A DNA stretch of 64,000 nucleotides, from sequence record PZ296772.1. One strand, written 5' to 3'. This document shows, in pieces, positions 33,410 to 61,295 of the stretch. Position 1 is the first letter of the stretch; the number at the start of each line of letters is the position of its first letter. The notes under the pieces are model-generated. The model did no database searches, was not told the DNA's origin, and was given only the letters and a program-made list of their open reading frames with translations. The position numbers were made by a program, and so were the translations under genes. The stretch is from a phage.

Positions 33410-34045
33410 ATGAAAACTACTCCTATTACTATCGCTATTGACGCAATCATAAAACAAGCTTCTTCTTTGGCCGCTATGGCCAAAGTAATTAGTCAAAACC
33501 CTGCTCGTTATAATGCTATTCTAGAAACTCTTCGACGCCCGGGACTTAGTAATTATGAAAGCCGAGTAATTATTACAGGTGTTGGTAAGAATGCTAATAT
33601 TGCAACTAAAGCTTCTGAGACATTTGCTTCACTCGGTATCCCGAGTATGTACTTGAACACCGGGCACTATTCTCACGGTGATGCAGGATTTATTGCGCCT
33701 AATGATGTATTAGTTCACATCAGTCGTTCTGGTAAGACTGAAGAAATGATAGGTGTTGCTAAACATCTTCGTATGATTCGTCCTCAGGTTAAACAGATTC
33801 TGTTACATTGTAACCCTGACATTCCACAAGAATACGAAGCTCTTTTTGATTATACGTTCTGTACCGGTATCGCGGTAGAAGTTGACGAGAACTCTTTAGC
33901 TCCGACAATGTCAACCACATTGTTGTTAGCGCTTATCGATACGTTCGCTATCAACCTTTCGTCTGAGCGTGGATTTACCTCTAATGACTTCCTTAAGTTC
34001 CACCCTGGTGGTGCACTAGGTGCCATGTTACGAGGCGAACAATGA
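33410..34045 (+). CDS. SIS-domain sugar-phosphate isomerase (arabinose-5-phosphate isomerase-like, no CBS domains)
   Basis: SIS motifs GVGKNANIATKA, HISRSGKTEE and C-terminal FHPGGALG typical of KdsD/GutQ/KpsF isomerases. Confidence 0.65.
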   Translation: MKTTPITIAIDAIIKQASSLAAMAKVISQNPARYNAILETLRRPGLSNYESRVIITGVGKNANIATKASETFASLGIPSMYLNTGHYSHGDAGFIAPNDVLVHISRSGKTEEMIGVAKHLRMIRPQVKQILLHCNPDIPQEYEALFDYTFCTGIAVEVDENSLAPTMSTTLLLALIDTFAINLSSERGFTSNDFLKFHPGGALGAMLRGEQ

Positions 34046-34226: not shown

Positions 34227-35912
34227 ATGAAAAAAGCTGTTATTCTTGGTGCTGGACTGGCAACTCGTTTGTATCCAATAACGCATCATATTCCAAAAGT
34301 TCTTGTGAACTATAAACAAGACACTATTCTGAGCAATTTGTATACAATTTATTCTGACCTTGGCGCAGATGAAATTATTGTAGTAGTTCATTCAAAATTT
34401 GCTGAAACTGTTCGAGCTTATTGTGAGCAAGAAGGGTTCAATGTGACTATTCGTACAGTTGATGAAGCGTATGGTTCTGCTTATGCTCTTGCTAAATTAC
34501 ACAAAGATTTAGACGGCCATAATGTAATTGTTAACTGGTGTGATATTATTCCTGATTTTGGTTCATGGTCTTGGAATGTTAACGCAATCTATGTTAAGGG
34601 TGACGAATGTCGGTATAATTTCGACGGTGAAAATATCACTAACGTAGGTTCAACAGGTGGTAATGTTGTAGGAATTTATCAGTTCAAAGACTGGGAATTC
34701 TATATGGGTTCTACTGATGAGGAAATTCATGAATACTGCAAAGGACGCGATTTCGTAGAATTCCTTTACAGCGGCGCATTCAATAAATCAGAGCTTATGA
34801 ATCTAATTGATTTAGGTGATATGCCTAAACTTGAAAAAGCTCATGAAGTTCGTGAACTTAATCGTAGTTTTAATGCAGTTGAAATTGGTGAAGAAACTGT
34901 AACTAAATTCGCATTAACCGAACAGGGTCGAGCTCTTCAGAAAGATGAGATTTCATGGTATCTTAAAGTGAAATCAGATTCAGTTCCTCAGTTAGTTTCT
35001 GTAAATGAAAATAACTTTGAAATGGAACGTATTAAAGGTAAGCCGGCATTTGAATATATTAAATCCAAATCAAGTCTTGCTCGTCCACAAATTGTTGATG
35101 CAATTTTAGATGCACTAAAATTCAGCACAGACACGTATTTTGTAAGTCCTGAAACTGTTCGTCGTGATTTCACTAAAGAATTCTATACGAAAGTTATTGA
35201 TCGTTGTGAAAGCATTCAGCCATTGATTGATTCATTTGGTAAAATCACACACGTGAACTACACTAAGATTGGACGTCTGAAGCCAATGCTGAAACAAGCT
35301 TTAGAACACCTTATTCGTTATCATAACCGTTCTCAGGGACAGTACTCTGTTATTCATGGTGACCCGAACTTCAGTAATACTATGATTACTGATAACGGCG
35401 AAGTCAAGTTTATCGACCCTCGTGGATATTTTGGCGAAACCAAGATTTACGGGCCAAAATTGTATGATGAAGCTAAAGTGCTTTATGCTGTTTCAGGTTA
35501 TGATGAATTCAATGCTAATCCGACCTGGGGACAGTTTACTATTGATGAAACAACTTGTAATGTGACTATTAACATCAATCCATTAATTTACAAATATGGA
35601 AAGATGAGTTCGTTTAACGAGTATCATCATTTGGCTGTAGCAATTATCTGGATTGCATTAGGTGGTTATTTCAAGAATAATCCACTTAAAGCGGTAGCCG
35701 CATATTATAAAGGTATGGAACTTCTGACTAAGCAATTACGTAACATGGGCCGTGTACTTCAAGATGGCTCTATTAGTTATGACGTAGCAGAACCTGTAAC
35801 GGCTACTCTGATTACAAAAAATCCTGGTAAATGGGTACTAACTGATAAAGAAACTGGTGTTTCCTATCGTCCAATCGGTGGCGATATCACTCATCAATGG
35901 GAACGAATCTAA
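34227..35912 (+). CDS. bifunctional sugar-1-phosphate nucleotidyltransferase / APH-type anomeric sugar kinase
   Basis: N-terminus ILGAGLATRLYPIT (NTP-transferase G-x-G-T-R-L); C-terminus kinase catalytic loop VIHGDPNFSNTMI and metal-binding FIDPRG. Confidence 0.6.
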   Translation: MKKAVILGAGLATRLYPITHHIPKVLVNYKQDTILSNLYTIYSDLGADEIIVVVHSKFAETVRAYCEQEGFNVTIRTVDEAYGSAYALAKLHKDLDGHNVIVNWCDIIPDFGSWSWNVNAIYVKGDECRYNFDGENITNVGSTGGNVVGIYQFKDWEFYMGSTDEEIHEYCKGRDFVEFLYSGAFNKSELMNLIDLGDMPKLEKAHEVRELNRSFNAVEIGEETVTKFALTEQGRALQKDEISWYLKVKSDSVPQLVSVNENNFEMERIKGKPAFEYIKSKSSLARPQIVDAILDALKFSTDTYFVSPETVRRDFTKEFYTKVIDRCESIQPLIDSFGKITHVNYTKIGRLKPMLKQALEHLIRYHNRSQGQYSVIHGDPNFSNTMITDNGEVKFIDPRGYFGETKIYGPKLYDEAKVLYAVSGYDEFNANPTWGQFTIDETTCNVTININPLIYKYGKMSSFNEYHHLAVAIIWIALGGYFKNNPLKAVAAYYKGMELLTKQLRNMGRVLQDGSISYDVAEPVTATLITKNPGKWVLTDKETGVSYRPIGGDITHQWERI

Positions 35913-36298
35913 TGCATCGTGTAGAAAACATGCTTAATCTTTGTTTTGATGTCGACGATTGTATAACAGAGTGGAATAACAATCGTGATTACGTGAACTT
36001 CAAGCCAGACGTCGAAATGGTGACTGCCATTAATGCCCTGTATGATGCAGGGCATACCATAACGCTTTACACTGCTCGTGGTATGAAGTCAGTAGGTCCT
36101 GGACGTATAGCAATTGACATTCTACCGAGTCTGATTCAGAACTTGGAAAACATTGGTTTGAAGTACCATAATTTGCTAACACATAAACCAGTATATGATT
36201 GGATTATCGACGACAAAGCTATGCGTCCTGACGAATTCAAAGCTCTTATGAATAAAGGCGAATTCGAAACATTTAAATCATATAAACCGAACCTATAA
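35912..36298 (+). CDS. HAD-like phosphatase (small)
   Basis: Start at ATG overlapping upstream stop; motif I CFDVDDCIT (DxDx-). Confidence 0.4.
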   Translation: MHRVENMLNLCFDVDDCITEWNNNRDYVNFKPDVEMVTAINALYDAGHTITLYTARGMKSVGPGRIAIDILPSLIQNLENIGLKYHNLLTHKPVYDWIIDDKAMRPDEFKALMNKGEFETFKSYKPNL

Positions 36299-36346
36299 TA
36301 ATTTAAGTAAGACCTGCAAAAAAACCATCGCATCAATTAACGTGAG

Positions 36347-37516
36347 ATGCAAAAAATGAATACTTTTAAAATCGGAACGAATTTTGATTTAGCTCTTCTT
36401 GATAAAATCGTAGAGCTCAATAAAACTTATCCTAATAGCTTGATAAACGAAGTGTACGGCTCTACAAGAGAAATGGCTTTTGTAGCAGCCAGACCTGATT
36501 TTAGGCTTCCTGACGTTGACAAAAAGATGTTAGAAGATTACGTTAAACGTTGTAACGAATTAGGTATTTGCTTTAACTATACACTCAACACGATAAATCC
36601 TGGTTCAAAAAGAGAACTAGTTGAGTGGAAGAAGAAAGCTATTCAGGATTATGTTCAGTATCTTTGGTCAATAGGCGTATGGCGTATTACTATCGCTAAC
36701 CCTGTTGTTATGGAAATTGTTCGTGAAGTAAATAAAGACATTGAGATTGAAGTTTCAACAATTCTACATGTTGATGCTGTAACTCAAATCAAATACTTGC
36801 ATGACCAATATAATATCAAAAAGGTCTGCTGTGGAATTCATAAGAACCGTTCAGTTTCTTTCCTGAAGCGTGCAGCAGAGTTTTGCAATAAGAACAATAT
36901 AATATTTGAAGTTCTTGTAAATGAGTTCTGTTCTAATGCTGGTAAAGGGTATACAACACATTGTAGCTATCGTGACTCTTGCTATATTTTCCATAGTACT
37001 GATGTTACAGCTGATGATGCTAAATCCTTAAATGGATATCCAATGCAGCACTGTATTAAAGCTCGTGATACAGACCCATTTAACTGGTTGAGAACTCGTT
37101 TTGTTCGTCCTCAAGATTTGAAACTTTATAATGATATTGGTATCACTCAATTCAAAGTTTCAGGACGTACAGGTAGCACAGACTACATTTTGAAAGTTCT
37201 TGAAGCATACGCTTCTGAAAAGTTTGAAGGTAATTTGTTAGAACTGTGGAAGCCTTTAGAGACTATTTTCACTCTTGAAAACGAAACCGAGTTTTCACAT
37301 ACAGTAAATATTGAAACCTCTTTGTTAGATGGCTTTTTAGAAAAAAGGTGGTTCAGACATCCAGATTTCGATTGTGCTAATGAAATCTGTGGGACGACGT
37401 GTACATATTGTGAAAGATATTATAAACGTCAGTTATCTAAAAACGGGTTAGCAGAAAACTCTATATCTATTATTGATATAACTAACTCTGATGACGCTTT
37501 GAGGTACCCGGAATGA
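36347..37516 (+). CDS. peptidase-U32-family-like protein (putative Fe-S enzyme)
   Basis: Central region resembles recalled U32 pattern (FNYTLNTI...GVWRITIANPVVMEIVRE...IEVSTILHV...NRSVSFLKRAAE); multiple Cys (CSNAGKG..HCSYRDSC, CANEICGTTCTYC). Confidence 0.35.
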   Translation: MQKMNTFKIGTNFDLALLDKIVELNKTYPNSLINEVYGSTREMAFVAARPDFRLPDVDKKMLEDYVKRCNELGICFNYTLNTINPGSKRELVEWKKKAIQDYVQYLWSIGVWRITIANPVVMEIVREVNKDIEIEVSTILHVDAVTQIKYLHDQYNIKKVCCGIHKNRSVSFLKRAAEFCNKNNIIFEVLVNEFCSNAGKGYTTHCSYRDSCYIFHSTDVTADDAKSLNGYPMQHCIKARDTDPFNWLRTRFVRPQDLKLYNDIGITQFKVSGRTGSTDYILKVLEAYASEKFEGNLLELWKPLETIFTLENETEFSHTVNIETSLLDGFLEKRWFRHPDFDCANEICGTTCTYCERYYKRQLSKNGLAENSISIIDITNSDDALRYPE

Positions 37517-37752
37517 TTTCTAGAAAAACTTTTAATCACCAACTTAATGAAGAGATTTTGACTACGAAACTGAACACTAACGAACAAATTCTTAAAAAGG
37601 CCCTTATGGGCCTGTTTGAAACCAAAGCGGCTAAAGTGATTAAAGAACCTGTTCAATTGGAATACTACGCTGATGCATTTCTTCACAGTGTTCTTGGAAG
37701 TATCGATGCTGAAGCTTTACGGTATACCAACATTGCCAAGAAATTCAAATAA
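37513..37752 (+). CDS. hypothetical protein
   Basis: 79 aa, coupled start. Confidence 0.4.
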   Translation: MISRKTFNHQLNEEILTTKLNTNEQILKKALMGLFETKAAKVIKEPVQLEYYADAFLHSVLGSIDAEALRYTNIAKKFK

Positions 37753-37775
37753 GCTTTACGAATCGAGTATATAAT
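37749..37775 (+). promoter_or_regulatory. MotA-box-like middle promoter candidate upstream of gene 42
   Basis: ataaGCTTTA, 11 nt, TATAAT. Confidence 0.4.
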
Positions 37776-37794
37776 AAATTGTATTGAGGTAAAC

Positions 37795-38511
37795 ATGGGA
37801 AAACATAACACAATGAAATATATCAAAGCCGCAGATTTTCAAGCCGCATTTAAAGCAGTCAATCGTGAAATTTTAGAAAACCCAGAATTCGTAACTGATT
37901 CTCGTATTGGACGTTGTAATGAAATTGGGTCTATGACAGTAGTTGTTGACACTCCATCATCATTCAAAATGACCGACCCACGTATTAACCGCATCTCTTA
38001 TGAATATGCTGAAGACTTCTGGAAGTTTATGATTTCTGGTGGTACTGACGCAGAAGAAGCGTTTAAGGCATACCCTAATGTCGCTAAATTTATTTCTAAA
38101 CCCAAATCAGACGCTTTGCCGGCGAACTTCAACACTTTCTATGGTCCTCGCATTGCGGCCCAATTACCAGCTCTTCTAAAAGAACTTAAAGAGAAGCCTA
38201 ACTCTCGAAGAGTTGTGTTCCAAATTCTAGAAAGTTCTGATCAGGCTTTGCTTGATTCGGACGAAACGCTTGAATATCCATGTACTGACTCAGTGACTTA
38301 TTATATTCGTGATGGTAAGCTTTATACCCACTGTCATATGCGTTCTCAGAACTGTGCTGTTGTTATGCAGTTGGATTTTTATCTCCAAGGAAAATTACTT
38401 CATTATATCGCTAACGAATGCGGTGTAGAAGTAGGTGATTATACTCATACCATGGTAAGTGCCCATGTGTTTGAACGTGATTTTGATTATGTTAAAGGAT
38501 TCCTTGACTAA
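37795..38511 (+). CDS. 42: dCMP hydroxymethylase (divergent)
   Basis: Thymidylate-synthase fold: nucleophile YPCTD, then HMRSQNCAVVMQLDF with Asp where TS has the PFNIAS Asn; T4 gene 42 position. Confidence 0.65.
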   Translation: MGKHNTMKYIKAADFQAAFKAVNREILENPEFVTDSRIGRCNEIGSMTVVVDTPSSFKMTDPRINRISYEYAEDFWKFMISGGTDAEEAFKAYPNVAKFISKPKSDALPANFNTFYGPRIAAQLPALLKELKEKPNSRRVVFQILESSDQALLDSDETLEYPCTDSVTYYIRDGKLYTHCHMRSQNCAVVMQLDFYLQGKLLHYIANECGVEVGDYTHTMVSAHVFERDFDYVKGFLD

Positions 38512-39410
38512 TGGCTATTTTCCGCGTACCTATCTTGAGTATGCGGTCTTATGAAACTGGACAGTATGCTATCCTTAAGGATGGCAACTTCCAACTTCAT
38601 TTGCACCGTGCTAATCCAGGTGATGTGATTACATATCCACGTAATGCATCTGATATTAAAGAATGTGAACGTCTTTTCCCGGAATTTAAGTTTGTTCCAT
38701 TATGGTATAAAGATAACGCGTATAACACTCGTAAATATTTCTGGTCTGAAAATGAATTTGTGGTTGATTCATTAATTGCTTATTATGATTGTGATTTTCT
38801 AATCACAGATATCACTGGATATGATGGCGCTTTTGACGTAGAATTCAATTTCAATATCACTGCAGACCCTAATAAACCACGTTTTTATATTGATGAATTC
38901 TTAAAAACCGACATGTTGTCTGTTAATCGTTCAATCCAAACAACTGTGTTGAATAAACGTCAAAAGGAAGTGCTGGTTAACGCTGGTGCCGATGGTAATA
39001 AGATTATCGTAACGCAGAAAGTTATACGTCCTTCCGTCATGCAGCGTCTTGTAGGTGATTTGGCTCCTATTCATCTAGATGGTATTTTTCATCCATTTCG
39101 AATTAGTGACCCATGCTATCGTTTTGAACAAGTTGTTGAATGCGCAATTCAATTAGGTCAACCGCTTTATATAACTGATCCAAATAATAGTTTCGACAGA
39201 AATAAGTATCCTGAAGAAGCGCTGATTCGAATTTTTAATCCAACTAAAACTGAGTACTATCAAATTCTTAAAGGACGTCCGAAGATTCAATATTTCGAAA
39301 ATCCTGAAGAAGTATTCCATCCAGGTCTTGGTGAGTTCATCTACTTTAATGCTTTAATTTCTTCACCGTATAATATACCTAAATACGAAGATGTCGTAAT
39401 CGAGGAATAA
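38511..39410 (+). CDS. hypothetical protein occupying the T4 beta-glucosyltransferase position
   Basis: 299 aa, coupled to the gp42 stop; no recognisable similarity to recalled T4 beta-gt. Confidence 0.45.
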   Translation: MAIFRVPILSMRSYETGQYAILKDGNFQLHLHRANPGDVITYPRNASDIKECERLFPEFKFVPLWYKDNAYNTRKYFWSENEFVVDSLIAYYDCDFLITDITGYDGAFDVEFNFNITADPNKPRFYIDEFLKTDMLSVNRSIQTTVLNKRQKEVLVNAGADGNKIIVTQKVIRPSVMQRLVGDLAPIHLDGIFHPFRISDPCYRFEQVVECAIQLGQPLYITDPNNSFDRNKYPEEALIRIFNPTKTEYYQILKGRPKIQYFENPEEVFHPGLGEFIYFNALISSPYNIPKYEDVVIEE

Positions 39411-39411
39411 A

Positions 39412-39960
39412 ATGGCTAAAATTATTTTAGTAGATGGCCCGGATAATGCCGGTAAAACAACTTTCATTAATGACGTAATGGAAATTAGTGAAAGATATGT
39501 AAAGATTGATTTCCCTAAACGAACAATTGATGGACGTTTCGATGTTAAGTCTCGAAATGAAGTTGGCTGTTTCGAAACGATGTTGAATTATTTAGACCCT
39601 ACTAAGATTTATCTGTTAGACCGTGGATATATTAGTAACTGGGTTTATGGACGTATTCGACAAGATGCGGACTCAGTTCTTGACGTTTATGAACAGGATT
39701 ATGTTCGTCTTTGCCAAAACCATGATGTGTTCACAATTATTTTAACACGTAACGAAATGACTGAAAGTTTTGAAGACGACCTTATTACTTTGTCTTCATT
39801 AGGTTTTAATACAGTCATTTCATATTTTGAAGAGTTTGCAATTCATAACAAAATCCAAACGTATCAATTACTTAATCATGATGGTGCTAACAAAGTTATA
39901 GGATTTAATGCAAGCGAACGTAATAATTTGATTACAGAAATCATCAAATGGGCTCGTTAA
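39412..39960 (+). CDS. P-loop nucleoside/nucleotide kinase-like protein
   Basis: Walker A VDGPDNAGKTT; LLDRGYISNWVYG resembling the dNK/TMPK DR(Y) motif. Confidence 0.5.
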   Translation: MAKIILVDGPDNAGKTTFINDVMEISERYVKIDFPKRTIDGRFDVKSRNEVGCFETMLNYLDPTKIYLLDRGYISNWVYGRIRQDADSVLDVYEQDYVRLCQNHDVFTIILTRNEMTESFEDDLITLSSLGFNTVISYFEEFAIHNKIQTYQLLNHDGANKVIGFNASERNNLITEIIKWAR

Positions 39961-40058
39961 GAGCCATTTAAAGTTTTAAATGCTGTATAACCCTTAGTAT
40001 ATAATCATCTTATCTTTTAAACATGAGTAAAATATAATGATGCCTATGGAAAAATACA

Positions 40059-41231
40059 ATGTCTGATTTAAAATCTCGTCTGATTAAAGCTTCTACTTCT
40101 AAAATGACTGCAGACTTGACTAAGTCTAAGCTGTTTAATAATCGTGATGAAGTCCCTACTCGTATTCCGATGTTGAATATTGCACTAGGTGGTGCTCTGA
40201 ATGCAGGATTGCAATCAGGCTTGACTATTTTTGCTGCTCCTTCTAAACACTTTAAAACGTTGTTTGGGCTGACTATGGTTGCAGCGTATATGAAGAAATA
40301 TAAAGATGCAATCTGTTTGTTTTATGACTCGGAATTCGGTGCTTCAGAATCTTATTTTCGTTCAATGGGTGTCGATTTAGACCGTGTAGTTCATACACCA
40401 ATTCAGTCTGTCGAACAACTTAAAGTCGATATGACTAATCAGCTTGACGCTATTGAACGCGGTGATAAAGTTATTATCTTTATCGATTCAATCGGTAATA
40501 CTGCATCTAAGAAAGAAACCGAAGATGCGTTGAACGAGAAAGTTGTAGGTGATATGTCTCGTGCTAAGGCACTTAAATCTCTTTTCCGTATTGTGACCCC
40601 GTATCTGACTATTAAAGATATTCCGTGTGTTGCAATTAACCATACCGCAATGGAAATTGGCGGATTGTATCCTAAAGAGATTATGGGCGGTGGTACAGGT
40701 ATTCTTTATTCTGCCAACACAGTATTTTTTATCTCTAAACGTCAGGTTAAAGAAGGTACAGAATTGACCGGTTATGACTTCACGTTGAAAGCAGAAAAAT
40801 CTCGCACCGTTAAAGAAAAATCTACTTTCCCAATCACGGTTAATTTTGATGGTGGTATCGACCCATTCAGTGGCTTGCTAGAAATGGCAACTGAAATCGG
40901 TTTTGTGGTTAAGCCTAAAGCCGGGTGGTATGCTCGTGAATTCCTTGACGAAGAAACAGGTGAAATGATTCGTGAAGAAAAATCATGGCGTGCTAAAGCT
41001 ACTGATTGTGTAGAATTCTGGGGACCTTTGTTTAAACACAAACCTTTCCGAGATGCAATTGAAACCAAATATAAACTAGGTGCTATCTCTTCTATTAAAG
41101 AAGTTGATGACGCTGTTAACGACCTTATTAATTGCAAAGCAACAACTAAGGTTCCAGTTAAAACTTCTGATGCTCCATCTGCAGCAGATATAGAAAACGA
41201 CCTTGACGAAATGGAAGATTTCGATGAATAA
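40059..41231 (+). CDS. uvsX: RecA-like recombinase UvsX
   Basis: 390 aa; MSDLKSRLIKASTSK, Walker A, FDGGIDPFSGLLEMA, WYAREFLDEETGEMIREEKSWRAK; near-identical to recalled T4 UvsX. Confidence 0.9.
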   Translation: MSDLKSRLIKASTSKMTADLTKSKLFNNRDEVPTRIPMLNIALGGALNAGLQSGLTIFAAPSKHFKTLFGLTMVAAYMKKYKDAICLFYDSEFGASESYFRSMGVDLDRVVHTPIQSVEQLKVDMTNQLDAIERGDKVIIFIDSIGNTASKKETEDALNEKVVGDMSRAKALKSLFRIVTPYLTIKDIPCVAINHTAMEIGGLYPKEIMGGGTGILYSANTVFFISKRQVKEGTELTGYDFTLKAEKSRTVKEKSTFPITVNFDGGIDPFSGLLEMATEIGFVVKPKAGWYAREFLDEETGEMIREEKSWRAKATDCVEFWGPLFKHKPFRDAIETKYKLGAISSIKEVDDAVNDLINCKATTKVPVKTSDAPSAADIENDLDEMEDFDE

Positions 41232-47947: not shown

Positions 47948-48035
47948 AATATCTCCTTAGTTACCTATTATTTATTACGCTTTATAAAATTAATGTTAGA
48001 ATTAACTCTCTTATACTGAATTGAAAGGAAAAATT

Positions 48036-48557
48036 ATGGCACACTTTAACGAATGTTCACAACTTATTTCTGGTGTTGATAAAGCAGAAGAAGCTTATTT
48101 TAATGCTCTGATTCACGAAGATAAAGACCCACTGCAGGTAATGCTTGATATGCAGAAATCTTTACAGGTTCGTTTGGCAAATGATAAGCCTGAACATAAC
48201 AAACATCCTGATGAATTGGCTACTGCCGGTGATGTTGTTGATTGGCTGCGTAATCAGAAAGATTATATTGATGATGAATTCCGTGAACTGCTGACTTCAC
48301 TTGGCGGTATGAGCAATGGTGAAAAAGCCGCTAGCTCTGTATGGAAGCCGTGGAAAGCACAACATGCTGAATATCGTAATCGTCGTATCGATGAACTGTC
48401 TCCTGAAGACCAGCTTGAAATTAAATTCGAGATGATTGACATCCTCCACTTTGTTCTGAATATGTTCCAAGGTCTGGGTCTTTCTGCTGAAGAAATCTTT
48501 AAACTTTACTACTTGAAAAACCAACACAACTTTGAACGCCAGGATAACGGTTACTAA
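48036..48557 (+). CDS. 56: dCTP pyrophosphatase gp56 (MazG-like)
   Basis: Start moved to ATG after AAAGGAAA; MAHFNEC, DPLQVMLDMQ, TAGDVV.W, IDDEFRELLTSLG, LEIKFE..DI.HFVLNMF match recalled T4 gp56. Confidence 0.85.
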   Translation: MAHFNECSQLISGVDKAEEAYFNALIHEDKDPLQVMLDMQKSLQVRLANDKPEHNKHPDELATAGDVVDWLRNQKDYIDDEFRELLTSLGGMSNGEKAASSVWKPWKAQHAEYRNRRIDELSPEDQLEIKFEMIDILHFVLNMFQGLGLSAEEIFKLYYLKNQHNFERQDNGY

Positions 48558-60194: not shown

Positions 60195-61295
60195 ATGAAA
60201 GTTATGTTTATCCCATCTCGTGCAGTCCCATTTAATCCTGACCGTGTACAAGGTGGACTTGAAGCAGTACATTTAAATGTGTTGAAATATCTTGTGTCCA
60301 TCGGTGCTGATATTGATTATATCGGCTTTGATAATGACACGTTTGGTGACTGGAAAGTTACACACCATCCTGTTGGTCATCTGACTAAATTCAGTCTAGG
60401 TATGAGTTATACTATGGCTCGTAAGATTGTTGAACTAGCCGGCATCCATGAATACGATTTTGTTGTTACTATGGAACCGACTAAACTAACCGTCCAAGCA
60501 ATTAAAGACGCAGGTCTCTCTAAAGTTCATAAGAATTTTATGGCTACGCCATTTGAACCGGTGTCTCGTGGTATTGTTCAAATTTGGGATCAGACTATCC
60601 AGATTCACAAGAACGGTGGGAAGAGCTATGCTCCTACTAAAGCCTTCCGTGAATTTGAACGTAAATATTGTCATATGACTTCAGCTCTTACTGACAAAAT
60701 TGATTATGACTACTGGCGTGAAAATCCATTATTTGAACCTGATGACTACCCGGTTATTTGTTTGAATGAAAAACCTGAAGTTCTTCCGGCAACTGATTTG
60801 ATTATTAGTGCTCAACGTTATGACACTAAGATGCGTCGCACTGATGTTGCTCTTGAAGCAATTAAAGCACTAGGCGAAAATGGTATTGGTTATTGTCCAA
60901 GCAAATGGGCACCACCAGCTAAATATCCTGTTATTATTGATGCTCCACACAGTGAAATCATGGAACGTCTTAAAACAGCTAAAGCACTTATTAATACATG
61001 TCCTGACACAGGTACGGTAGAGAATAGTTCTATTGAAGCCATCTCTAAAGGTGTCCCTGTAATCCAGTTAGTTTTTAAGGATTATCCTCATGCGACATTC
61101 GAATACGACCCAGATACTGTGCGTGTAGAAATTGATTCCTCTACTCCTAAGAAAGAAGTAGTTGCGCTTTACACAAAAGCTGTATTAGAATTCACTGACA
61201 CATACAAAGCTCGAGTTAAACGTGCTGAAGCAGTATGGAAGAAGTATAATCGAGATGCAGTTGTTGCGATGTGGGATAAAATCTTCACAGCGTAA
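60195..61295 (+). CDS. GT-B-fold glycosyltransferase (candidate DNA hmC glycosyl/arabinosyl transferase)
   Basis: 366 aa; N-terminal MKVMFIPSRAVPFNPDRVQGGLEAVHLNV and C-terminal ENSSIEAISKGVPVIQ resembling the GT4/GT-B donor-binding motif; between 39 and rIIA. Confidence 0.55.
   Translation: MKVMFIPSRAVPFNPDRVQGGLEAVHLNVLKYLVSIGADIDYIGFDNDTFGDWKVTHHPVGHLTKFSLGMSYTMARKIVELAGIHEYDFVVTMEPTKLTVQAIKDAGLSKVHKNFMATPFEPVSRGIVQIWDQTIQIHKNGGKSYAPTKAFREFERKYCHMTSALTDKIDYDYWRENPLFEPDDYPVICLNEKPEVLPATDLIISAQRYDTKMRRTDVALEAIKALGENGIGYCPSKWAPPAKYPVIIDAPHSEIMERLKTAKALINTCPDTGTVENSSIEAISKGVPVIQLVFKDYPHATFEYDPDTVRVEIDSSTPKKEVVALYTKAVLEFTDTYKARVKRAEAVWKKYNRDAVVAMWDKIFTA

Follow-up and report, generated by a model that had tools for sequence, protein, structure and literature searches.

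A conserved synthase, transferase, and kinase core in the predicted arabinosyl-5-hydroxycytosine pathway of an RB69-type phage

The 64,000-nucleotide phage sequence PZ296772.1 (the whole stretch analysed, hereafter the window) carries two tightly packed genes between a thymidylate synthase homologue and uvsX, where T4 encodes its beta-glucosyltransferase (beta-gt). The first specifies a protein of 299 amino acids (aa), termed here glycosyltransferase 1 (GT1), and the second a P-loop kinase of 182 aa. Together these genes probably form the downstream two-thirds of a synthase-GT1-kinase core within the arabinosyl-5-hydroxycytosine hypermodification pathway of RB69-type (Mosigvirus) phages. On the basis of fold, synteny, and phyletic pattern, we infer that GT1 is the first, base-proximal transferase and that the kinase most probably phosphorylates 5-hydroxy-dCMP (5hodCMP) to the diphosphate. 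The two genes are real and functionally linked, and their identities and predicted roles are already known from published work. What is new here is that synthase, GT1, and kinase constitute a conserved three-gene core.

A preliminary description, made from the sequence of the window alone, had placed two packed open reading frames (ORFs) at this position and proposed that they serve an alternative cytosine modification. The coordinates and lengths (Table 1) are confirmed, and the proposal is supported: the products resemble a sugar transferase and a nucleotide kinase of the deoxynucleoside kinase/thymidylate kinase (TMPK) kind. Other parts of that description, including the identity of the modified base, have to be revised.

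Results and Discussion

Identity and layout of the locus

Over 3.6 kb, identity is 99.6% to Escherichia phage PTK and ~98% to phages Bas47 (AlbertHofmann), JS09, Shf125875, and PhAPEC2, and the window was assigned to the genus Mosigvirus on these grounds. The identification of the pathway follows from the 98-99.6% identity of the window DNA to Mosigvirus genomes, including PTK, Bas47, JS09, HY126, and RB69, and from the 98% identity of GT1 to RB69 ORF046c+047c and to its HY126 counterpart. The arabinosylation cluster matches the annotation of Bas47 and HY126 gene for gene. In addition, the order of RB69 gp45-gp55 is reproduced: the polymerase gene is followed by the isomerase, kinase/pyrophosphorylase, phosphatase, U32, synthase, GT1, kinase, and uvsX genes, while a second glycosyltransferase gene (GT2) adjoins rIIA. 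Upstream of the synthase are genes for an SIS isomerase, a 561-aa fusion of nucleotidyltransferase and kinase, a small phosphatase, and a U32-family protein; they correspond to the RB69 module that Thomas et al. 2018 were the first to report (PMC6024577).

The stop codon of the synthase gene overlaps the start of GT1 as TAATG. At the GT1/kinase junction (GAGGAATAAAATG), a TAA stop is separated by one base from the ATG of the kinase gene, and a GAGG Shine-Dalgarno sequence lies within the GT1 gene; this layout is compatible with translational coupling. Given the overlap and the one-base gap with its internal GAGG, the synthase, GT1, and kinase genes appear to constitute a single translational unit. 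The equivalent region of T4 runs 42, beta-gt, segA, uvsX. Both ORFs are judged to be genuine conserved genes rather than chance ORFs, because tblastn recovers 349 phage records with the 299-aa protein and 344 with the 182-aa protein. A promoter and terminator scan of positions 36200..40200 was uninformative for operon limits (13 sites against 15.8 in shuffles; 1 terminator-like sequence against 2.0).

Chemistry of the modified base

The preliminary description assumed 5-hydroxymethylcytosine (hmC) chemistry and named the upstream gene 42. Both assumptions are superseded: the base is 5-hydroxycytosine (5hoC), and the upstream gene encodes a flavin-dependent 5hodCMP synthase. Phages PTK, Bas47, JS09, HY126, and RB69 carry mono- and di-arabinosyl-5hoC and no glucosyl-hmC (PMC13326640). 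The protein is near-identical to HY126 structure 9iqc (phmmer E 4.5e-162) and reads MRSQN at the QRSCD of E. coli ThyA, the D169N signature of 5hodCMP synthases. Asp169 is kept in T4 gp42 (MRSND) and in gene 42 of phage PS2. Lee et al. (NAR 2026, PMC13326640) demonstrated that RB69 gp48, a ThyA homologue, is a flavin- and O2-dependent 5hodCMP synthase. They also reported that RB69 cytosines are mono- or di-arabinosylated 5hoC, not arabinosyl-hmC, and that arabinosylated cytidines fully replace canonical cytidine in RB69 virion DNA (PMC13326640). Mass spectrometry after liquid chromatography (LC-MS) and nuclear magnetic resonance (NMR) define the modification in virion DNA of RB69, Bas46/47, and NP as alpha-arabinofuranose (Araf)-O5-cytosine, partly extended by a second, beta-linked Araf (PMC13326640, PMC13390438, PMC12923530). 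For the window phage, the same modification is predicted from its genes.

The pathway can be proposed as follows. The synthase would yield 5hodCMP, which the cassette kinase and the gp1-type kinase would convert to the diphosphate (5hodCDP) and the host nucleoside diphosphate kinase to the triphosphate. The polymerase would then incorporate 5hoC. GT1 would transfer the first alpha-Araf from UDP-Araf onto the cytosine 5-hydroxyl, most probably in newly replicated DNA, since all known phage DNA glycosyltransferases act there. GT2 would then attach the second arabinose. By accelerating the build-up of the modified deoxynucleotide triphosphate pool, the cassette kinase would overlap the role of the T4 gp1-type deoxynucleoside monophosphate (dNMP) kinase. 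In the published scheme, the upstream sugar genes make UDP-arabinofuranose, and the role of pentose-1-kinase is given to the 561-aa AfhE-like protein (PMC13326640).

Two observations concern the synthase and its annotation. Two distant metagenomic phages have a Flavodoxin_2 gene (resembling NAD(P)H-dependent FMN reductases) close to the module (L006:1-523, L007:6739-7293); it is directly upstream of the D169N ThyA homologue in L007 and ~6 kb upstream of it in L006. This neighbour is compatible with the flavin dependence of 5hodCMP synthases; the Mosigvirus cluster is without it. Many database records name the synthase “dCMP hydroxymethylase” or “thymidylate synthase” and the kinase “thymidylate kinase”, and some call GT1 “RNA polymerase binding protein”.

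Distribution and linkage of the three genes

Linkage was scanned with profiles of synthase, GT1, and kinase in 58 loci, some of which are near-duplicates, so that the counts are not independent. Wherever GT1 is clear and the flanks are long enough (49 of 49 loci), the kinase gene lies within 4.4 kb of GT1. In 38 it comes immediately downstream of GT1 (gap -119 to +1 nt), in six (Dhakavirus) immediately upstream of the synthase, and in the remaining five 2-4.3 kb upstream. In 43 of 48 loci, the synthase and GT1 genes adjoin each other (gap -8 to +10 nt). Genus counts for GT1 and kinase agree closely: 177 and 177 records for Escherichia, 57 and 57 for Acinetobacter, 15 and 15 for Shigella, and 25 and 26 for Klebsiella. 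At a tblastn threshold of E<=1e-3, the kinase occurs solely in phage groups that also carry GT1, and T4, T2, and T6 are absent among the kinase matches listed. The linkage in 49 of 49 loci, the matching genus counts, and the D169N signature of the synthase together support the assignment of the trio to one pathway.

Two unrelated metagenomic phage contigs, of 355 kb and 122 kb, also carry the trio; their proteins are 31-37% identical, and the kinase gene overlaps GT1 by 17-22 nt. It is also listed for phage DLP3 (gp80, gp79, gp78) and the hexose-modifying Rhizobium phage RL38J1 (gp216, gp215, gp214) (PMC13326640). Furthermore, loci L007 and L059 contain a member of the GT1 family but no pentose genes. 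The kinase therefore tracks the synthase-GT1 pair and not the pentose genes, which favours a nucleotide over a sugar as its substrate.

A variant module was observed in a different type of phage (L053/L059, IMGVR_UViG_3300035520_000516; also L054 and L057), which has PolIII-alpha, a DnaG-type primase, and RecA. The module comprises a dUTPase_2-like protein, a TMPK-like kinase (168 aa), a GT1-like protein (329 aa), and a U32 protein (365 aa). The GT1-like protein is recognised by hhalign at 99.9% and keeps SMRS, DGN, FPFRLSD, and TDPN. Neither a ThyA homologue nor pentose genes lie within 21 kb. This module suggests that U32 can replace the ThyA-type hydroxylase and that kinase and GT1 form the invariant core.

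The 299-aa transferase

The preliminary description regarded the 299-aa protein as an orphan. It instead belongs to a widespread family (phrog_3891; 137 clusters in a large protein collection), with homologues in Mosigvirus (98% identity in RB69 and HY126), Dhakavirus, T4-like phages of Klebsiella, Enterobacter, Yersinia, and Serratia, Acinetobacter phages (~46%), and Thanatos-2 (47%). An alignment of 40 sequences contains 34 invariant columns. The conserved blocks include MRS (11-13), KDGN (23-26), and FPFRISD (193-200; position 198 conserved in at least 90%), followed by T-D-P-N (222-225; D223 in 39 of 40), K246, and HPG (270-272).

Sequence searches with GT1 returned no Pfam family at E<=0.1, no NCBIfam family, and no Glycos_transf_1 or Glyco_trans_4 match; a profile search of the PDB found no glycosyltransferase. 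It was resolved by structure prediction alone, the check proposed in the preliminary description, which returned a GT-B fold with two Rossmann-like domains and an inter-domain cleft. The closest folds are those of GT4-family transferases, and T4 beta-GT does not appear in the top 60. In a viral structure library, the top matches are orthologues of GT1 itself, followed by generic family-1/4 transferases. GT4 is a retaining glycosyltransferase family. A GT4-like (retaining) fold thus suits a base-proximal arabinose that is alpha-linked. Profile comparisons detect no sequence relationship of GT1 to T4 beta-gt (hhalign probability 0.1%) or to GT2 of the window, and GT1 is therefore best seen as a separate GT-B lineage. 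The possibility that it is a diverged beta-gt was dropped on the same grounds. Nor is the earlier notion of a replacement of beta-gt supported, as the trio is an old cassette that also occurs in unrelated metagenomic phages.

In the published assignment, RB69 gp46:47 is a putative “arabinosyltransferase 1” and gp45 a “nucleotide kinase” (PMC13326640). The transferase role is supported by phage Thanatos, whose DNA is mono-arabinosylated and which encodes only a GT1-type transferase (47% identity; PMC13326640). The preliminary description had suggested a second transferase; by the published inference GT1 is the first, base-proximal enzyme, and the second is the 366-aa GT2. The latter matches the solved “phage HY126 glycosyltransferase” structure (PDB 9iqz/9ir0; phmmer E 6.7e-250). 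In the RB69 reference (AY303349, 24600..25497), GT1 is split into ORF046c and ORF047c, and tblastn recovers it in two pieces. This split has been attributed to a sequencing error (PMC13326640), and the window ORF is intact.

Several points weigh against these assignments. The EX7E motif is only half conserved in the family: the window has E267-x7-E275, but position 267 is Lys or Thr in most homologues, while position 275, which adjoins the invariant H270-P271-G272, is acidic in 40 of 40 sequences (Glu in 35, Asp in 5). GT1 is acidic, with an isoelectric point (pI) of 5.2 (family median 5.17) compared with 9.05 for T4 beta-GT, though the beta-gt homologue of PS2 is also acidic and pI is hence a weak proxy for DNA binding. 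We found no GT1 enzyme assay in the accessible literature, and the orthologue DLP3 gp79 gave no in vitro arabinosylation of 5hoC-DNA with UDP-Araf or UDP-arabinopyranose (UDP-Arap) (PMC13326640). Lee et al. cannot tell whether the first arabinose joins the mononucleotide or DNA (PMC13326640). Likewise, the gp1-type kinase RB69 gp159 already phosphorylates 5hodCMP (PMC13326640), and a second 5hodCMP kinase looks redundant. Finally, an LC-MS assay reportedly showed that Thanatos TH1_063 (47% identical to GT1) converts UTP and xylose-1-phosphate to UDP-xylose (PMC12838424).

Taken at face value, the TH1_063 result would make the 299-aa protein a UDP-pentose pyrophosphorylase that activates the sugar rather than a transferase. 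We consider this barely credible. The fold is GT-B, not that of a nucleotidyltransferase, and the cluster already encodes an NTP_transferase-domain protein, which PMC13326640, citing He et al., identifies as the UDP-arabinose pyrophosphorylase of HY126. In addition, the TH1_063 assay had a no-enzyme control only, so that a co-purifying E. coli pyrophosphorylase is possible, and the GT1 family persists in the two loci noted above that have no pentose genes.

A pre-replicative route is the other alternative to be weighed. GT1 would arabinosylate free 5hodCMP, the TMPK-fold kinase would phosphorylate the resulting arabinosyl-5-hydroxy-dCMP, and the polymerase would incorporate arabinosyl-5-hydroxy-dCTP. 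The kinase would be a dedicated one because the gp1-type dNMP kinase could not handle so bulky a nucleotide. We know of no other phage DNA glycosylation made at the nucleotide level. If true, this route would explain both the second nucleoside monophosphate (NMP) kinase wherever GT1 occurs and the failure of the GT1 orthologue on 5hoC-DNA, which left the nucleotide route open to its authors (PMC13326640). Strict retention of the kinase with GT1 does need explaining, since gp159 already accepts 5hodCMP, and in 38 of 49 loci the kinase gene overlaps or directly adjoins GT1. Members of the GT1 family are acidic, and they are smaller than is usual for GT-B enzymes that bind DNA; cytidine is reported to be completely replaced in RB69 virion DNA (PMC13326640).

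Nonetheless, we regard both the pre-replicative route and its dedicated kinase as unlikely. Every characterised phage DNA glycosylation is post-replicative, and later arabinoses go onto DNA, as DLP3 gp76+77 act on RB69 DNA (PMC13326640). When the synthase and gp1-type kinase are expressed alone, 5-hydroxydeoxycytidine is readily incorporated into DNA (PMC13326640). The kinase gene is upstream of the synthase in Dhakavirus and 2 kb away in Marfa-like phages, showing that adjacency to GT1 is not obligatory, and the in vitro support consists of negative data only. Arabinosylation by GT1 of 5hoC in newly replicated DNA thus remains the preferred reading.

A distant relative of GT1 does occur beside beta-gt. 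The preliminary description held that homologues at the same position in phages that glucosylate through beta-gt would count against its proposal, and Serratia phage PS2 offers a weak instance. In PS2 (gp042, L004:4001-4927) and phage Muldoon, a 308-aa homologue directly follows a true gene 42 with Asp169 kept; beta-alpha-gt and beta-gt come next, and no kinase accompanies it. The PS2 protein aligns with GT1 by hhalign at 99.2% with 19% identity (Foldseek TM score 0.73). Most of the invariant residues are replaced, including R12, K23, G25, N26, R197, D200, T222, D223, P224, H270, and P271. It probably represents a relic or a protein that has been repurposed, and the case leaves the link between the intact pair and the alternative modification unrefuted.

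The 182-aa kinase

The two motifs recognised in the preliminary description, VDGPDNAGKTT (residues 7-17) and DRGY (70-73), are present and conserved across the family. G9, D11, N12, G14, K15, T16, D70, and R71 are invariant, and the P-loop (GxDNxGKT), FPK(R), and DR(G)Y show little or no variation apart from R37 of FPK(R). The protein has an NMP kinase fold with a P-loop, DR(Y/H), and an NMP-binding FP..R segment, of which the P-loop and FPK(R) segments align with human TMPK. Its fold is nearest to thymidylate kinases, and the top PDB sequence match to a TMPK has E 0.0046. However, it falls under the curated TMPK cutoffs, with no PF02223 match and 16.1 bits against a TIGR00041 cutoff of 83. 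With hhalign, only the N-terminal 25-40 residues aligned with human and E. coli TMPK. Judged by its motifs, the protein appears to act as an NMP kinase of the TMPK kind, yet it is not a certified member of the thymidylate kinase family.

The annotation as thymidylate kinase in databases, together with the fold, would be consistent with an enzyme that has no connection with the cytosine nucleotide, either a sugar kinase or a housekeeping dTMP kinase. Such a role is very improbable. By annotation, dTMP is already covered by gp1 in T4-type phages, and the restriction of the kinase to GT1-carrying phage groups, with near-matching genus counts that are identical in Escherichia, Acinetobacter, and Shigella, argues against a housekeeping function, as do the scores under the family cutoffs. 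As for a sugar kinase, the trio accompanies a hexose instead of a pentose in RL38J1 gp214-216 (PMC13326640) and also occurs in loci without pentose genes, and the 561-aa protein supplies the pentose C1 kinase in its C-terminal domain. The preliminary description had offered either a sugar or a modified nucleotide as substrate. The nucleotide option stands, with the phyletic pattern pointing to a nucleotide related to 5hoC; the sugar option is disfavoured by the thymidylate kinase fold and by the pentose-1-kinase role of the 561-aa protein (PMC13326640).

Neighbouring genes

As summarized in Table 1, the window encodes the other components expected of the pathway. Between the isomerase and 561-aa genes lies a small hydrophobic ORF that is conserved and annotated in Bas47, HY126, and KLB31. 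In KLB31 it is described as “contains transmembrane domain”, which would place a membrane peptide within a nucleotide-sugar cluster.

Table 1. Coordinates of the genes discussed, in the window unless a locus is named
Feature	Coordinates	Strand	Evidence and remarks
SIS-domain arabinose-5-phosphate isomerase (RB69 gp55-like)	33410..34045	+	Pfam SIS 9.6e-10; annotated in Bas47, HY126, KLB31; PMC13326640
Hydrophobic ORF, 47 aa	34042..34185	+	
Sugar-phosphate kinase / UDP-arabinose pyrophosphorylase, 561 aa (RB69 gp52:53, HY126 AfhE-like)	34227..35912	+	Pfam NTP_transferase N-terminal; weak APH/kinase-like C-terminal; PMC13326640
HAD-type sugar phosphatase (RB69 gp51, AfhF-like)	35897..36298	+	NCBIfam capsule biosynthesis phosphatase 2e-13; PMC13326640
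Peptidase-U32-family protein (RB69 gp50)	36347..37516	+	Pfam PF01136 42.2 bits, cutoff 22.4; 10 invariant cysteines
ORF, 79 aa	37513..37752	+	phrog_8601; no Pfam match; start overlaps U32 stop region
Thymidylate synthase homologue, 238 aa	37795..38511	+	5-hydroxy-dCMP synthase, not dCMP hydroxymethylase
GT1, 299 aa, ATG start	38511..39410	+	Predicted compact GT-B (GT4-like) glycosyltransferase; orthologue of RB69 gp46:47, DLP3 gp79, Thanatos TH1_063
Kinase, 182 aa, ATG start	39412..39960	+	Predicted thymidylate-kinase-fold NMP kinase; orthologue of RB69 gp45, DLP3 gp78 “nucleotide kinase”
uvsX	40059..41231		Downstream of kinase, spacer 98 nt
dCTPase (gp56-like), predicted to strip dCTP from the pool	48021..48557	+	Pfam dUTPase_2; Bas47 “dCTPase / dCDPase” at syntenic place
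GT2, 366 aa, predicted second arabinosyltransferase (RB69 gp3/ORF003c type)	60195..61295	+	Between topoisomerase and rIIA; phrog_8302; PMC6024577, PMC13326640
Related U32 loci	L058:4983-6394, L003:7462-8852, L009, L010, L013, L015		

A candidate anaerobic route to 5-hydroxycytosine

The U32-family protein may be an oxygen-independent, prephenate-dependent cytosine C5 hydroxylase, by analogy with characterised relatives. Its RB69 counterpart, gp50, is annotated as a “sugar or heterocycle reductase” (PMC13326640). The U32 proteins RlhA, TrhP, and UbiU/UbiV are prephenate-dependent hydroxylases; RlhA makes 5-hydroxycytidine in rRNA, and the route of TrhP and UbiU/UbiV is oxygen-independent (PMC5727448, PMC6599085, PMC10990095). 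The phage protein is conserved at 82% identity or more in 222 phage records; one of these is Thanatos-2, with a GT1 that is only 47% identical. Ten cysteines of U32 are invariant, among them a C-terminal CX4CX3CX2C. Acinetobacter is a strict aerobe, and U32 is absent from all 57 Acinetobacter phages (none among the 222 U32 records). In many relatives, the U32 gene is followed by a small gene for an AroQ chorismate mutase, the enzyme that produces prephenate (Pfam CM_2 in 7 of 7; PDB 1ybz, E 1.4e-15).

The conservation of U32, its absence from Acinetobacter phages, its cysteines, the chorismate mutase neighbour, and the ThyA-free module of L053/L059 together suggest that U32 and chorismate mutase provide an additional, anaerobic way of making 5-hydroxycytosine, much as tRNA has dual TrhO/TrhP routes. 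We found no paper in the open-access literature linking phage U32, chorismate mutase, and 5-hydroxycytosine. This side lead may matter more than the transferase-kinase finding itself.

The 79-aa ORF downstream of U32 was considered as a chorismate mutase, following the annotation of Klebsiella phage KLB31. This was rejected: KLB31-type ORFs at that position are chorismate mutases, whereas the window ORF is a different type of protein without chorismate mutase signal. The window thus carries a “type B” protein (phrog_8601) where relatives carry the mutase. Serratia phages L026 and L027 have a type-B-like N-terminus fused to chorismate mutase. The ORF is shortened to 40-58 aa in HY126 and several metagenome clusters and may be decaying.

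Implications

Work published between 2018 and 2026 has established that arabinosylated 5-hydroxycytosine takes the place of cytosine in RB69-type phages; this modification reportedly protects DNA against restriction enzymes, CRISPR-Cas, and the DNA glycosylase Brig1. Once the substrate of GT1 (DNA or nucleotide) and the reason for the second kinase are settled, the pathway will be complete. A complete pathway would aid phage engineering, enzymatic synthesis of glycosylated DNA, and the prediction of modifications from genomes. In the meantime, genomes of uncultured phages can be screened for the conserved D169N synthase, GT1, and kinase genes as a practical marker of O5-glycosylated cytosine.

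Comparison with known systems

The nearest known counterparts of the kinase are thymidylate kinases (PF02223/TIGR00041) and the T4 gp1 dNMP kinase; it shares fold and motifs with the former but scores under the family cutoffs. For GT1, the known T4 enzymes to compare are beta-glucosyltransferase (GT63) and alpha-glucosyltransferase (GT72), and it has no detectable sequence homology to the former. It is 8-12% identical to bacterial GT4 enzymes (sucrose-phosphate synthase 6kih, BshA 6n1x, PimA 2gej, WaaG 8b5s), from which it differs in being ~60-100 residues shorter, in lacking a Pfam Glycos_transf_1/Glyco_trans_4 match, and in not conserving the first Glu of EX7E.

Gp79/gp78 of Acinetobacter phage DLP3 and TH1_063 of Shewanella phage Thanatos, the latter with the 186-aa gene downstream, belong to the same families, with transferases 46-47% and kinases 43-46% identical to those of the window, and both phages share its order of synthase, transferase, and kinase. 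DLP3 differs in adding a third arabinose through extra transferases, whereas Thanatos DNA carries one pentose and its protein is the one reported as a UDP-xylose pyrophosphorylase. The closest systems are RB69 gp46:47/gp45, HY126, Bas46/47, and NP (Lee et al. NAR 2026, PMC13326640; PMC13390438). Apart from the split transferase of the RB69 reference, which is one intact ORF in the window, these phages have the same genes with no difference of substance.

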